NCBI GenBank assembly: GCA_963713855.1 | Contig: OY970209.1 | Span: 544,001-608,000 of the forward strand | DNA: 64,000 nucleotides | Source: an uncultured bacterium | GTDB taxonomy: Bacteria > Babelota > Babeliae > Babelales > Babelaceae | Reading direction: 5' to 3' | Shown here: piece by piece, positions 27,001-36,000 of the stretch | Layout of the letters: every line of letters begins with the position of its first letter | How positions within the stretch are numbered: position 1 is the stretch's first letter | Position numbers: made by a program

Positions 27001-30000
27001 GTTACATACTTATTGTGTATGGGATAGACCGGAAAATCCGGTCTATCCCATTAGCACATATACCAGAAAGGGAACCCCTTTCTGGTAAAATAAATCTACG
27101 TAAAAAGTTTAAGAAGGGTGTGGGTCAAGTCATAAAGCCTGGGTCAAGGGTGTCTACCCTTGCGCTCGCCGCGTAGGCGTACTTCCCTCATCTTTATGTG
27201 GGCATAGAACCTAACCGAGATGCTCTTCAATGCGAGCTTTAAGATCGTCCTTAGCGATATAGCCCATGTGGCGCCAGACCACTTTCTTGTTTTTTATAAA
27301 TACAATCGTCGGCACAGAGGTGACATTAAATTGTATAGCTAAATCACGGGCCTCATCAACATTAAGCTCAGCAAAAATGTATGCGTCGCCTAATTCGTGA
27401 GCTAAAGCCTGAAAATGTGGCTTTAAAAGCATGCACGGACCACACCAAGTTGCGAAAATATCGATGATAACGGGCTTTTTTGTTTGTTCTAAGACGTTGC
27501 TAGCGTTTTGGTTACTTAACGTTGTGAGCATAAGATCTTTACCTTAAAAATAGCTAATGATTAGGATACTGTGCAGTCTACCGTTGTCGATTTTAAAACG
27601 CAATAGATTGTGATGCGGGTCAGCATAGGAGCCGGTTATCAAACGGGGATTTGCGGCTTTTAGTAGATCGCAATTATGCAAAAAAGCCATATAACACATG
27701 CAAAACTCTTGCTATACTTAACTAGTCCTTCTTACACTGACACGTAACCCTTAAGGAGCATCTATGTATCATGAAACTGTAGCAAGCCAAGAGCACGTAA
27801 AGAATCTTTTTTATCGCGTATATGCGTGGATGACTGGAGCGCTTTTAGTTACAGCAGCTACTTCTTATGCTGTTATAATGACGCCCAGCTTAGTCTATAC
27901 ATTATGGTCAAATACGTGGCTTATAGTTTCCCTAATAGCCGTTCAGCTTATTGTTGTTATAGTTTTTTCAAGCAAGCTGCCAACTCTGTCTTATAGAACA
28001 GCTTTGAGCCTTTTTCTTGCATACGTCATACTGAGTGGTGTGACGCTGTCGGCGGTTTTACTGGTTTACCCTATCATAACTATCCTTCGCGCCCTCATTG
28101 TTACAGGTGGCATGTTTGCCTCCGCGGCCGTTTATGGATATTTTACAGACACCGATCTTTCTAAGATGCGGTCTCTTCTTACGATGGCGCTCTTTGGGTT
28201 TATCATAGCTTTATTGGCAAATCTGTTTTTACAAAGTACGCTGTTTGATTTTATAATCTCCTGCGTTGGGGTAGTTCTTTTTACTGTCTTGACTGCTTTT
28301 GATGTTAATGCAATCAAGCGGTACGCAGATCAAATAGAAGAGGGTACTGAAGACTATAATAAGGTTGCCTTGCTAGGGGCTTTAAAGCTCTATCTCGATT
28401 TTGTTAACCTCTTTCTTAACATACTAAGGCTTATGGGCGGTGGCCGTAAAAAGTAGCGCATGAGGGACTGGAGGGGGTAATGAACATTCGTAAGGTTGCA
28501 ATTTTATGGCTGGCGAGTTTGTATCTTCCCATAGCTTGTCAACCCGAGAAAGTTGCCACACGTAGAGACGGCCCAGAAAATGAAGAAGCGGTCATTAATT
28601 TAGTTGAAGAGGGCGTTCAATTTTTGCAAACTCATACGGTCGATGAGGTATGCGTTGACTTTACGTATAATCCCCGGTGGCGCGAACCGGACACAAAGCT
28701 TTTTCTTATAGACGAGCGCAATAGAATATGGTGTATCCGGGATGAACCCAACCTTATCTGGAAAATACTTGAACACAAAGCGACTCTGCTTTTGGGTAAT
28801 ATTCCATACGCGATGCGTGAACGTGGTGTTCAAGGGGGTTGGCTTTCATTTTTGTGGAATGAACAATTAGTACGTGTTTACGTTAAAAACGTGACAAAAG
28901 GTCGACGCACCTTTACTATGGGAGCCTTTCTGTTTTCTGAAGGGCCACGCCAGCAAGTGAAAGAGCTTGTTTTTACAGCAAGAAATCTCCTAAAACAAGT
29001 GGGGTTAAATACTGCTATTGAACGAATCAGTAGCCCAACGGGTCAATTTTTGCGCGGATCCTTCTCGGTCGCTCTTTACGATTACGATGGGATATGTTTG
29101 GCAAATTCTTACAATCTGACGTGCGTAGGATCTCGAGCACAAGATCGTATTGATGATTCGGGAAAGCAAGCTTTTGAAAAGTATGTACATGTAACAAAAT
29201 CAGCTCCTTACGGATGGGTTGACAGCGTCTATAACGGTATTCGTGAGCGAATGTTCGTTGCCCGTTTTACCTATCCAAATGCACCAGCGCATAGGTTTTA
29301 TATTCTTACCTCAGGCTATTACCCACAGGTAAACGATGAGTTTGTTGTTTCAATGACCCACGAAGCTAAAGCCGTTATGGAACGCGAAGGCGCTGAAAAA
29401 GCGTTTGCTATTTTTTCTCCTGTGACCGGTCACAACCCTTTTTATAAAGCTCGTTTATATTTAGTCGTCTATGATGAAAAAGGCGTAATAAAGGCACATA
29501 GTCGATTTCCTTCTTTAGTGGGGGTAAACGCTTATTACCAAAAGGGTCAAGCGGGTTATTTCTTAACCCAGAGAATCCTTAATGCCGTTTCTAAGAAAGA
29601 CCAAGGCTGGGCATTTATTTATATTAGAAATGCTGCAGAACTTGTTTATGTGCAGCGTGTTACATTACCTGAAGGAACCTTTATCGTAACGATACAAGGC
29701 TATTCGCCGCTTGATAAAGAGCACACGTCAGCGGCTATAGTTGAATGGCTATGCGGCAGATTGACTGTTGAGCAGCCATTATTACTGTTTCACTCACTAA
29801 ACCGTGGTGCTGCTGTATGGAATCTTGGCTTCAAGGGAACAGGCCAAGCCAATATTTACAGCGACCTTTTTATTGAGATTTATGATAAGCATGATTTTTG
29901 TGTGTCAGCTGGGGCGCAGGTACATAAGATGTGGAAGAAAATGGATGACGGCTTTAAGCACAGCCTGTCTAAACTAAAGCGTGCTTCAAAGCCCGAAGGC

Positions 30001-33000: not shown

Positions 33001-36000
33001 TTAGTAAGTCAAGGAAAACCAGCGTCCATGTACGATTTTAGTGGTTTTGATTCCGACTTTTTGCGTGGTGAAGTTCACATAACAGCGTTTAATACTGAGG
33101 GCGTTGTCTTAGCTGATGGACCTTGGTATAAACACCTTATCTGGTCCCCCATGTCGATGCGCGATAGGTATGGAAGAAAGGTTATTGAAAAGATTCTTGC
33201 AACGGCTGCTCGTGGTGAAGGATGGGTCGACTATAAGCAAGCAAATGCAACCTTTAGGGCATATACTCGCCGAGTGGATCTAGAGCGTTCCCCGAAGAAC
33301 GTAGAAAGCGTCGTTGTTCTTTCAGGACACTATGTATTCTAAGAGACTATTATGCTAAAGAAAACTTCACCCTTGGGCTTGTAAATATTAAAACTTCATT
33401 TATAATAAAAATTGTTTTTTAAAGTAAAACATTTTTAAGATGGAGTTTTTATGACAGTGCGCCCGGTTTCTGTTGTTTTGGGTATAGTTGTGCCGTTTTT
33501 GATGGCTGGTTGTATTCATCAGTCTGATGAGCAGATTTTAGAAAAAGCTGAGCGCTATTTTGCTGTTGTTTCTTTACGTTATGAAAAGCTACTTGATACG
33601 GCCGATCCTGAAAAAATTATACTTTGTGCACGCAGTCTTGGTACTTCGTCGTATGCTCCCACAACTTCATGGTTCGATTTCATATTTAAGGGTGATTCTA
33701 CCTATAGGGAGGCCATTCCTCTACACACAGTGGCACGTTTTCTAGAAAGCGATTTGGATGATTTGTATAGTCATCTTGCGTCATTACAGACGCGATTATT
33801 GGTTGGACTTCCTATTTATAAAAGGCTACAAATGTTGCGTGATGGCCTCGTGCAAGCGCTTGAGACCATCAAAGTTGATGAGGATTATATTGAAGAAGCC
33901 CGTTTTATAGATTTAAAACGTGTTGAGGAAAAGCGGCTAGCAGCTGAAAGGGATCAGCGTGACTATCTTCGAAAAATAGCTGAAAGACCACCTTATAAAG
34001 AAGAAATTACAATCACTGAAATTGTAAAAAAACCCTCAAAAAAGCACTGTGAAGTTGAATGCGACGAGACGCGGCCAGTCAAAAAACCCAAAAAGGAAAT
34101 TGCTGAGATCGTAGTAGAATAACTCTGTATTCAAAAATATAATGGGCCTTCCAAAGGCACATATACCAGAAGGGGGAAATCCCTTTCTGGTATATTAAAC
34201 CCACATAAAAGTTTAAGCAGGGTGTGGGTCAAGGGCGTTTGCCCTTGCGCTGGCCGCGTAGGCGCCTCTTTCTCTTTGACTTACTATTTAGGGACTCTAC
34301 AAGGCCTAAGAAATGAGGAAGGCCTTTTTAAGCCATTTTTTGACGCTTTATCTCATCGGCGTAAAAAGTAAGAAGTCCTACAAAAAAAACGCTTGCTGCT
34401 AGTGCAAATTGGAGCGTCAGTTTTTCGCCAAGAAAAGCCCATCCCAACAATCCAGCAAATATAGGAATAGAAAAACCTGATAACGAAATTAAGGTTGCGC
34501 TGTGATGTTTTAGTAAAGAAGCATAAAGTGTATAGGCAATTACGTTTCCTGCAATGATCGTGTAAGTGAGTAGTAACCAAAACAGTGAAGGCGAGCTTAT
34601 GACCAATGGTGAAGGTGTATCGAGCCACGCTGAGGTTAATAAAGCTATGATGCCACTTTGGGTCATAATAAGTCCGTTAAGTTGTGCTGGCGGATAGCGA
34701 TTTTTTCGTAATTGGTGTTGTACCATAATCCAGCCAAAACGACTAAAAAGAACAGCACACAAGGCCGCAGCTTGGGGTAGCAATAAAGGGCCTGTACAGG
34801 TTTTTGTGCCCACGTTAGAAAGGTTGACTGAAAACAAAACGCCTGCGCAAGCTATCAAGATGCCAATAATCTTATTTCGTGTTAATTTTTCGCCAAAAAG
34901 TAGGTATGCGTAAAGAGCAGTTACAAATGGGTCGATGCTTCCTAAAAGTGTGGCGTGGCCAGTTTCTAAATTTTTAAGAGCGTAGTTTTTTAAAATTGAT
35001 GGGGTGTAGGTTGTAAAAAAAGCTATGCCCGTTAAAAACCGCCAATCTTCTTTTAATTGCGCGAGGGTGTAGGTGCGCTTTTTCCAAGTATAAGAAAGAA
35101 GAATTATTCCGGCGCTCAGCATTCTTATGCCAACGAATAAAACGGGTGGGATTATCGTGAGAAGGATTTTATTAACGAAGATACCGCTTGCAAAGAGAGC
35201 AAAAGTAAAGAAAATAATAAACACGCGCGCACTCGGTGATTTGTTTATGTAAGTATACCCGTTTTGATTAAGAGAAGGAAAGCGGGCACTTTTAATGGAG
35301 GAGAGAGTGGGATTCGAACCCACGATCCCGATCTCTCAGGATAACGGTTTTCAAGACCGCCGCCTTCGACCACTCAGCCATCTCTCCAGTTGAGTTTTAT
35401 GTGGTCTTCGTTTTAAAGCTGGTGCGCCCAGGAGGAGTCGAACCCCCAACCTTCAGATCCGTAGTCTGACGCTCTGTCCAATTGAGCTATGGGCGCATTC
35501 AATGAAAAATAATAAAAGTATTTTAACAGAATTCTCGGTGGCGGTCAAACGACAAGGGGCTTATTTAAATGCTTTTTGCCAAGCAAGCGCACGTTCTAGA
35601 AGCTCGTTTAAGAAAGCGTGTTTTTGATCAGAATAGCCTAAGAGTGTCCGAGTGCCTGAATTGAGGATGCGCTCTTTCATGCTGGAATATTCATGCGCCA
35701 CCAGTGGATGGGTTATAAGATAGTTTCGCAACGCAGTGTTGTTATTGCAAAGATTGCTTTTATAGCGTGTGATTGCAAGATTATATCCATGCTTTGGGCC
35801 TCTTTTTCGATAGTATAACCGCTCTGGTATGCCAGCGTGCCCGAAGCCCGTATATCCAAGCTGTTCAAGTAAGTTATTTTCTACGGTAGTTACTGTAAGA
35901 CTGTTGAGGCCGATAAGAATATCAATAATGGGTTTTGCTTTTAGGCCAGGAACGGCAATGCTGCCAAAATGTTCGATACCCTCTAATCGAGAGCCAAATA

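Follow-up and report, generated by a model that had tools for sequence, protein, structure and literature searches.

Three tandem genes for four-repeat Cache proteins without output domains in a member of the Babelota

The yccA-Cache locus and the proteins it encodes

The window, a 64,000-nucleotide stretch of contig OY970209.1 from an uncultured member of the Babelota (genome G000), contains three genes that each encode a protein of four Cache-type repeats (Table 1). All three lie on the plus strand with intergenic gaps of 20 and −11 nt, and the first begins 23 nt after the end of yccA. We took the start of copy 2 to be the ATG that follows a purine-rich RBS; the ORF caller picks an upstream TTG instead. 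The three proteins share a pairwise identity of 24%, no fourth paralogue was found in the genome with tblastn and phmmer, and the frames of all three copies are intact in three genomes.

Table 1. Coordinates of the features of the yccA-Cache locus, given as positions in the window
Feature	Position	Strand	Remarks
Putative sigma-70 promoter, AAAACTCTTGC ... TACACT	27702..27738	+	Upstream of the yccA-Cache block
yccA, Bax inhibitor-1 (TMBIM) membrane protein	27764..28456	+	Pfam Bax1-I, E 1e-48; probably heads the operon
Quad-Cache copy 1, 542 aa	28480..30108	+	Predicted signal peptide and four repeats
Quad-Cache copy 2, 532 aa	30129..31727	+	Predicted signal peptide and four repeats
Quad-Cache copy 3, 541 aa	31717..33342	+	Repeats at about 31798-32163, 32164-32574, 32575-32949 and 32950-33339

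The genome encodes one sigma-70-type factor, and a consensus promoter scan returned 13 sites against 13.7 expected. Among relatives, 14 of 40 loci had the motif AACYMTTGC ahead of the block, against 6 of 440 other upstream regions, an enrichment that is inflated because the motif was picked by eye from the same regions. It was retained both where yccA comes first (6 loci) and where the Cache gene does (8 loci). Judging from these features, yccA and the Cache genes would be cotranscribed from a putative shared promoter.

A repeat HMM trained on relatives placed four repeats in each of the three copies. Copies 1 and 3 also matched the Pfam family sCache_2 (PF17200) with 41.6 and 52 bits, above the gathering cutoff of 25. 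The survey's finding of sCache_2 and dCache_2 matches stands for these two, but copy 2 falls below the sCache_2 cutoff; its sole Pfam match is a subthreshold one to dCache_2 (E = 0.0026), and it was placed by the family repeat HMM. The repeats follow an A-B-B-A-like order, with repeat 2 resembling repeat 3 (E = 6e-45) and repeat 1 resembling repeat 4 (E = 8e-39). The one copy that we folded, copy 3, gave a predicted model (pLDDT 94.9, pTM 0.89) of four helix-helix-PAS units, each with the two N-terminal helices and single PAS-like module by which sCache_2 domains are recognized. This model recovered the resemblance reported earlier to 4exo and 2qhk (target TM 0.64 and 0.62) and to 4k08 (Z 17.2, rmsd 1.8, 119 residues aligned).

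We found no output domain in the 40 long or outlying homologues scanned, among which lactate permease and cupin were the only extra domains and one row, P0154, was a non-Cache protein. Longer orthologues (600 to 750 aa) do not hide a C-terminal anchor, the surplus being low-complexity sequence at the N terminus or within repeat 4 and having no membrane helix. The flanking membrane helices and cytoplasmic output domain of Cache-type transmembrane receptors were not found in the three G000 copies.

An N-terminal hydrophobic core (10-residue KD of at least 2) was present in 46 of 51 family members, the G000 copies scoring 2.07, 2.34, and 2.51; among controls it was seen in 4/34 thioredoxin, 2/28 CysS, and 23/23 BamA proteins. 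The highest internal 19-residue KD among the 51 members was 1.78, in copy 2. A lipoprotein nature was rejected, the lipobox regex matching none of the G000 copies and 3 of the 51 proteins overall. A cysteine pair in repeat 1 (38/51 and 32/51 proteins) fits an oxidizing compartment. Called by hydropathy, and not by a signal-peptide predictor, the location of these proteins would be the periplasm. The description of three exported proteins, each with four sCache_2-type repeats and neither membrane anchor nor output domain, is upheld.

Distribution of the family and its pocket residues

Four Babeliales-type families (f1, to which G000 belongs, f19, f2, and f21) carry the quad-Cache gene, mostly as a single copy, in 115 of their 119 genomes; it was found in none of 131 genomes of the other 17 families. 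Within f1, Pfam detected it in 35 of 36 genomes and a profile search in 39 of 39, again mostly in one copy. In these four families the gene belongs to the core set, usually in one copy, and is not the patchy one suggested by the earlier count of 7 of 31 genomes with frequent tandem copies. In a quick tree, in which orthologues averaged only about 32 to 37% identity, copy 1 clustered with copy 1 of G001 and G008 (SH-aLRT 100, stem 1.8) and copy 2 formed a separate clade with the same two genomes (support 100, stem 1.41). The G000 paralogue nearest to the single-copy orthologues is copy 3. G001 and G008 have three Cache genes each and G056 has four; duplications, in several lineages, include those of G015, G021, G037, and G056.

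Kin proteins are also found in free-living methanogens and Deltaproteobacteria. The repeat type is doubled and fused to an L-lactate permease in Fundidesulfovibrio, and such a fusion recurs at five more loci in Acidobacteriota and Geobacterales, confirmed as a single ORF in four of the five. A single-repeat form in Azospirillum adjoins an ABC transporter and a PQQ dehydrogenase in both regions read, and ESM Atlas clusters of 567 to 575 aa match at a score of 0.97. Output-less tandem Cache proteins exist in other phyla too, and the G000 set is a variant of these. No prior description of such proteins was found in the literature covered, which took in a minority of subscription papers; the word "Cache" does not occur in the main text of PMC4776705.

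The carboxylate tetrad of PscD is given in the available text of PMC5062169 as Y90/H103/Y143/K156. We mapped it through the 5g4y alignment, locating the Lys as three residues before the strand Tyr. Repeat 2 carried the full Y-H-Y-K in 24 of 33 single-copy orthologues and at least three of the four residues in 27. Repeat 1 reached three of the four in 14/33, and repeats 3 and 4 in 0/33; among 10 further f19 and f2 proteins, repeat 1 had Y-H-Y-K in 7. The full tetrad was found at repeat 2 of 1 of 18 proteins from multicopy genomes and in none of the 12 G000 repeats, the best being Y-H-F-R in repeat 2 of copy 2. Copy 1 has K-I-F-V, S-N-S-E, Y-H-I-E, and F-A-D-R in repeats 1 to 4. In repeat 3, 9 of 10 rows of the copy 2 clade have Arg where PscD has Tyr143, and all 10 have Glu where PscD has Lys156. 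The repeat 1 pocket of copy 3 is wholly hydrophobic, and by reading, hydrophobic filling was seen in 12 of 15 rows of its clade. The replacements are consistent within each paralogue clade and often polar. Lactate permease-fused repeats have Leu in place of the tetrad His.

The nearest folds, 4k08 and 4exo, are acetate- and pyruvate-bound according to the accessible part of PMC5062169. Together with the repeat 2 tetrad, the lactate permease fusions, and the ABC transporter neighborhood in Azospirillum, these ligands lead us to read the family as carboxylate binders. It probably once captured small organic acids, and C2-C3 carboxylates would be the ligand class of the ancestral repeats. Since no G000 repeat has the tetrad, the three copies may bind no carboxylates at all. 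The survey's finding that these are stand-alone exported binders and not sensor heads thus suits the family, with its output-less homologues and repeat 2 tetrad, but binding is less certain for the G000 copies themselves.

Candidate partners and competing explanations

HisKA, Response_reg, MCPsignal, GGDEF, Guanylate_cyc, SpoIIE, HAMP, EAL, and dCache_1 were not found in G000, which is 91% complete, in agreement with the earlier statement that it has no histidine kinase, response regulator, chemoreceptor, or diguanylate cyclase. Its two HATPase_c matches we take, from their N termini, to be GyrB and MutL. Across f1, HisKA was present in 3 of 36 genomes and Response_reg in 4 of 36. To speak of a cell with no receptors, as had been done, goes too far, since G000 has three membrane one-component regulators (7TM-GAF-PAS-AAA-HTH) and one GLIC-like pentameric-channel homologue, in an inventory for which Pfam scanning covered 120 of 260 predicted membrane proteins. 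The predicted model of the regulator has seven N-terminal helices, GAF- and PAS-like units, an NtrC-type AAA fold, and an HTH. Such receptors could respond in trans to a soluble binder, which weakens any argument from their absence, but none tracks the Cache gene across genomes.

We give a probability of about 0.5 to a detached carboxylate binder, resembling a solute-binding protein, that acts in trans and was triplicated and retuned in the G000 lineage. The observations behind this reading are the architecture, distribution, gene order, and pocket residues described above and the predicted fold of copy 3. An ancestor of the four families would have acquired a protein of four sCache_2 repeats that was exported by Sec and had no output domain, its gene landing behind yccA and being transcribed from the yccA promoter. 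Repeats 1 and 2 would be pockets for C2-C3 carboxylates of the acetate, pyruvate, and lactate class; the relined repeats 3 and 4 would probably act as scaffold or bind a different molecule. In the periplasm, the soluble protein would capture a host-derived acid, as a solute-binding protein would, and the loaded protein, at a guess, would act in trans on a membrane protein, be it a transporter, channel, or one-component regulator. In the G000/G001/G008 lineage, an old triplication would have let each copy fix distinct pocket residues, its specificity changed or lost. No Pfam SBP family was found in the three G000 copies, and the copy 3 model is not the two-lobed PBP fold. A conserved permease next to the Cache gene was not seen at any of 41 loci (LysE was convergent at 5), and LctP was found in 0 of 61 genomes, so we rejected lactate permease as the partner. 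TM6 genomes were reported, as far as the available portion of PMC4776705 goes, to lack acetate pathways and to make at most lactate, which leaves acid uptake for metabolism without a clear purpose.

A rather unlikely reading is that the free four-pocket protein belongs to a split sensory system, reporting host organic acids in trans to YccA or the 7TM regulator and replacing two-component signaling in these intracellular parasites. As an obligate partner, none of YccA, the 7TM regulator, the channel, and lactate permease fits. TMBIM proteins have a calcium/pH leak channel role, and α2δ is an auxiliary subunit that tunes animal calcium channels. By analogy, the Cache protein might dock on YccA and tune it, and yccA does lie on the same strand less than 1 kb upstream of the Cache gene in 75 of 81 genomes in which both were located, across four families. 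The pair also sits together behind groEL in three g18 genomes and has the promoter motif in common. However, a bamA-cysS-trx-(F5)-yccA block is also present in Cache-negative families, so the adjacency can be an old insertion site. Moreover, a search for yccA came up empty in 14 of the 39 f1 genomes that carry Cache, including 9 of 10 of genus g12, which keep Y-H-Y-K, and yccA occurs without Cache in f10 (10/10), f12 (15/16), and f5 (13/14). We therefore consider a YccA subunit improbable. The divergent neighbor F5 was rejected as a partner; it was not found in G000 and is present in Cache-negative families.

The empty tetrad count, the hydrophobic pocket of copy 3 repeat 1, and the rigidity of the predicted four-domain model would suit three copies with dead pockets, serving as structural or chaperone-like envelope scaffolds in a bamA-trx-yccA neighborhood. 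The clade-consistent, often polar replacements are as expected for new chemistry, however, and with the intact frames they make this loss a poor prospect.

LuxP acts in trans on LuxQ, and in the same way the loaded Cache protein might bind the membrane bundle of the 7TM regulator and switch transcription as a detached sensor head. The regulator has a suitable predicted build and is present in 75/75 f19 and 34/39 f1 genomes. The regulators of G000 equal its Cache copies in number, at three each, but we regard this as a coincidence, because copy numbers do not track elsewhere: G001, G008, and G056, with 3, 3, and 4 Cache genes, have one regulator match each. The regulator was not found in 5 of 39 f1 genomes, nor was it found in g18, g9, and G057, all of which keep the repeat 2 Y-H-Y-K; it is present in Cache-negative f10 (10/10), f5 (14/14), and f12 (15/16), and 0 of 30 regulator loci had a Cache gene within 1.5 kb. 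This pairing is quite improbable. The pentameric channel was considered because a stand-alone Cache gene shares an operon with one in Rhodopseudomonas (available text of PMC549065). We rejected it: it was not found in 4/39 f1 and 36/75 f19 genomes or in G001, g39, f2, and f21, is present in 32 of 33 Cache-negative f11 genomes, and at 32 channel loci no Cache repeat was found, the channel usually having its own PBP-I protein, either next in line or fused to it.

That the protein leaves the periplasm for the vacuole or host cytosol, there to sequester acids or bind a host protein, with triplication as host adaptation, we likewise hold to be quite improbable: an intracellular lifestyle (three TLC ATP/ADP translocases in G000), a T2SSF-family gene 4 kb downstream, rapid divergence after duplication, and duplications in several lineages (G015, G021, G037, and G056) speak for it, but the gene resembles a housekeeping gene in its near-universal presence, single copy, and synteny, a pattern that the expanded propeller and ankyrin families do not share, and it has kin in free-living organisms.

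Babelota are obligate parasites living inside protists, and we know of almost no regulation described in them. This core gene, whose ligand pocket can be predicted, is kept in cells almost devoid of kinases and chemoreceptors and offers a direct bench handle on the host cues that they detect. The triplicated, relined copies are a natural series for changes in Cache specificity, and a partnership with YccA, if true, would give bacteria a counterpart of the α2δ-calcium channel pairing. The family is also a handle on the function of output-less Cache proteins generally, a question left open by the only paper found to deal with stand-alone Cache domains.

Comparison with known systems

The quad-Cache proteins resemble the sCache_2 sensors of chemoreceptors, namely Adeh_3718 (4k08), a V. 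parahaemolyticus MCP (4exo/2qhk), PscD (5g4y/5g4z), and H. pylori TlpB (3ub6), in fold (Z 17.2, 15.7, and 13.9), in sequence (E 2e-10 to 3e-5), and in the Y-H-Y-K pocket of the orthologues. There, however, sCache_2 is a single domain of a transmembrane receptor, whereas quad-Cache is a soluble chain of four repeats with no output and, in G000, altered pockets. Output-less proteins elsewhere (the Azospirillum single repeat, a Methanoregula protein of 4 repeats, 8- and 16-repeat forms, and the Cache x2-LctP fusion) have the same repeat subfamily, an N-terminal signal, and no signaling domain. Those are uncharacterized database entries, several of them lipoprotein-like, whereas the G000 type has a fixed four repeats and is core to a clade of intracellular parasites.

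α2δ and Cachd1 each line up four Cache/PAS-like units along a single extracellular chain. They were among the fold matches, although the likeness is per domain only (target TM 0.08 to 0.11, rmsd over 16), and their VWA domain and dCache_1 units are missing from the G000 copies. A solved soluble receptor, the Desulfohalobium extracellular ligand-binding receptor (5ere), matches over a single domain (Z 10.6, rmsd 3.2 over 116) of its 540-residue chain; the rest is presumably a periplasmic binding protein. Stand-alone sCache_heme is likewise a periplasmic Cache fold without a linked output, an organization that the accessible part of bioRxiv 10.64898/2026.02.01.703092 calls highly unusual, with more than 90% of Cache domains fused to signaling modules. 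It has one Cache fold and a CxxCH motif, whereas each G000 protein lacks CxxCH and consists of four repeats.

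Three quad-Cache genes and their distribution

The three open reading frames of the survey's finding were confirmed at their positions on the plus strand, spaced by 20 nt and then overlapping by 11 nt. The copies share 24% identity over their full length, and a search of the 1.52-Mb genome found no further Cache paralogue. By hydropathy, all three have a hydrophobic N terminus and none has a convincing internal membrane helix. A repeat HMM built from relatives matched each copy four times; repeat 2 resembles repeat 3 most closely, and the next closest pair is 1 and 4. The model of copy 3 (pLDDT 94.9, pTM 0.89) shows four helix-helix-PAS units, and the solved domains nearest to it are the sCache_2 sensors 4k08, 4exo and 3ub6.

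Pfam sCache_2 was present in 35 of 36 genomes of the same family (f1), the single exception having a gene truncated at a contig end, in 4/4 genomes of three other families and in 0/20 genomes of the remaining families. A family profile, built from the same family's matches, of which the Pfam search is independent, was found among 250 other genomes of the phylum in f1 (39/39), f19 (72/75), f2 (3/4) and f21 (1/1), and in none of 131 genomes in 17 other families; related genomes are non-independent samples in all these counts. Most Cache-bearing genomes have one copy; G000 (the genome studied here), G001 and G008 have three each. In a quick tree these copies formed three clades (support 100, stems 0.8-1.8), in each of which every one of the three genomes has a single gene: the triplication is old and has been retained. 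A second, partial Cache copy in G004 (L005:1153-2589) opens with an unrelated stretch, presumably PurL-like, and is probably chimeric or misassembled.

Receptors elsewhere in the genome

The proteins had been placed in a cell without receptors. Two-component, chemotaxis and c-di-GMP systems were indeed not found: searches of G000 (completeness 91%) gave no HisKA, Response_reg, MCPsignal, GGDEF, EAL, Guanylate_cyc, SpoIIE, HAMP or dCache_1, and HisKA and receiver domains occur in only 3/36 and 4/36 f1 genomes. The broader statement is wrong, because G000 encodes three membrane regulators and a pentameric ligand-gated channel homologue.

Coordinates of the features discussed (C1, contig; L numbers, locus handles)
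Feature	Location	Strand	Position relative to window
Quad-Cache copy 1	28480-30108	+	inside
Quad-Cache copy 2	30129-31727	+	inside
Quad-Cache copy 3	31717-33342	+	inside
EamA and GrpB starts, tRNA-Ser genes	35296-36209		inside
113-aa ORF	36629-36970	+	inside
517-aa protein	40794-42347	+	inside
Membrane regulator 1	G000:C1:78181-80760 (L086:41-2620)		outside
Membrane regulator 2	G000:C1:731547-734279 (L120:7347-10079)		outside
Membrane regulator 3	G000:C1:927822-930503 (L130:12482-15163)		outside
Pentameric ligand-gated ion channel homologue	G000:C1:621904-622953 (L114:14244-15293)	-	14 kb past window end

The regulators came to light in a Pfam scan of 120 of the 260 predicted membrane proteins of G000. 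They are paralogues of 860-911 aa whose N-terminal part has six to seven membrane helices; they also contain units that resemble GAF and PAS domains (labelled from secondary-structure pattern), an AAA fold of the NtrC type and, at the C terminus, an HTH. Since Walker A and GAFTGA motifs are missing from all 32 aligned regulators, and G000 has one sigma-70 and no RpoN, we read them as sigma-54-independent membrane regulators. Of the 251 genomes from this phylum, 179 have members of the family, often as tandem pairs and usually divergent from one neighbour gene, which we take to be endonuclease-III-like; it may be the order's main sensory system. A weak Pkinase match (E = 3.9e-4, under the cut-off) falls in a protein of 367 aa that carries a signal peptide (G000:C1:138585-139685).

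The channel homologue was missed by Pfam; in profile searches it matches GLIC as well as a pH-gated chloride channel, with E = 3e-9 at best. Its family is present in 153 of 251 genomes, usually with a PBP-I gene next downstream. Fusions join it to PBP-I in G073 and, in family f6, to about seven additional TM helices at the N terminus; no PBP-I partner adjoins the G000 copy.

Within the window, the 517-aa protein has about 13 TM helices and no clear Pfam family (weak MARCHF6_C); from its motif we assume a resemblance to OPT-type transporters. The 113-aa ORF, presumably PemK/MazF-like, lies directly behind tRNA-Ser. The called EamA and GrpB starts overlap tRNA-Ser genes, so the true starts lie further in.

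Ligand pockets

PscD binds carboxylates through Tyr90, His103, Tyr143 and Lys156, according to PMC5062169. Mapping these positions by alignment, we found Y-H-Y-K in repeat 2 of 24 of the 33 single-copy orthologues and at least three of the four residues in repeat 1 of 14, but in repeats 3 or 4 of none (0/33). Repeat 1 has the complete tetrad in 7 of 10 further f19/f2 proteins. No repeat of the three G000 copies has it. In clades assigned by best BLAST hit, repeat 2 of copy 1 recurrently has Ser or another small residue plus mostly Asp/Asn, repeat 3 of copy 2 has a recurring Arg/Glu pair, and repeat 1 of copy 3 is recurrently hydrophobic. These clade-specific replacements suggest that pockets were changed or closed after duplication.

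We put at about one in two the probability that the quad-Cache protein is a periplasmic carboxylate binder, working like a solute-binding protein (SBP), which would act in trans on a separate membrane protein, with binding re-tuned in the three G000 copies; this is the most likely reading. That the copies are scaffolds with dead pockets is unlikely; the missing tetrad speaks for it, the recurrence of the replacements within each clade against it.

Gene order, partners and known systems

The usual gene order is bamA, cysS, trx, (F5), yccA, Cache, yccA being a Bax inhibitor-1 gene. Among the matches listed, yccA lies within 1 kb upstream of Cache in 75 of the 81 genomes where both have a place; 35 Cache-bearing genomes have no yccA place there, partly because 31 matches fall outside those listed. 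The two genes probably form an operon. The bamA-to-yccA block also occurs in Cache-negative families. In loci that have lost yccA, Cache has shifted up behind the same promoter-like motif, so it does not depend on yccA. This motif, AACYMTTGC, occurs in 9 of 1245 upstream regions of G000 (raw count), among them those of several exported-protein genes and of a thioredoxin reductase-thioredoxin fusion. F5 proteins (exported, 175-270 aa; L061:4608-5279 and 19 other loci) have no Pfam family and were not found in G000; F5 is divergent from yccA in 19 genomes of the locus comparison.

The Cache protein is unlikely to be a YccA subunit: although the genes are neighbours, yccA was not found in 14 of 39 Cache-bearing f1 genomes. 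It is slightly less likely still to be the detached head of the 7TM regulator, not found in 5/39. The pentameric channel was not found in 4/39, and all three candidates are common in Cache-negative families. A further candidate, lactate permease, turned up in none of 61 genomes, and no partner was found. Every f1 genome has YccA or the regulator, a weak hint that the two may be alternative partners. A host-facing role is as improbable as that of a regulator head. The organism is a member of the Dependentiae/Babelota: G000 encodes three ATP/ADP translocases, and close homologues of the Cache proteins are labelled "Candidatus Babeliaceae bacterium" and "candidate division TM6 bacterium".

The carboxylate-binder reading can be set beside kin outside the phylum. 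There the same repeat occurs alone, doubled and up to 16-fold without output domains; six genomes carry it as a fusion with lactate permease and one as a fusion with a cupin, and in Azospirillum it is encoded next to ABC transporters. What these forms point to, as a general theme, is that small acids are captured for a separate membrane protein. Among G164:C28, P0048, P0119 and P0020 (homologues), eight-repeat forms are two fused quad units and a 16-repeat form has 2099 aa; the G164:C28 frame has 1183 aa.

Output-less tandem Cache proteins are a known kind, widespread as database entries; the interest of this gene lies in its belonging to the core genes of a parasite clade and in the sharp binding prediction that it yields. 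The literature bearing on the comparison is PMC5062169, PMC4822843, PMC549065, PMC4776705 and bioRxiv 10.64898/2026.02.01.703092. The quad-Cache protein would work like an SBP, yet by fold it is not one; its domains are sCache_2, as in Cache receptors, yet it is not a Cache receptor itself.
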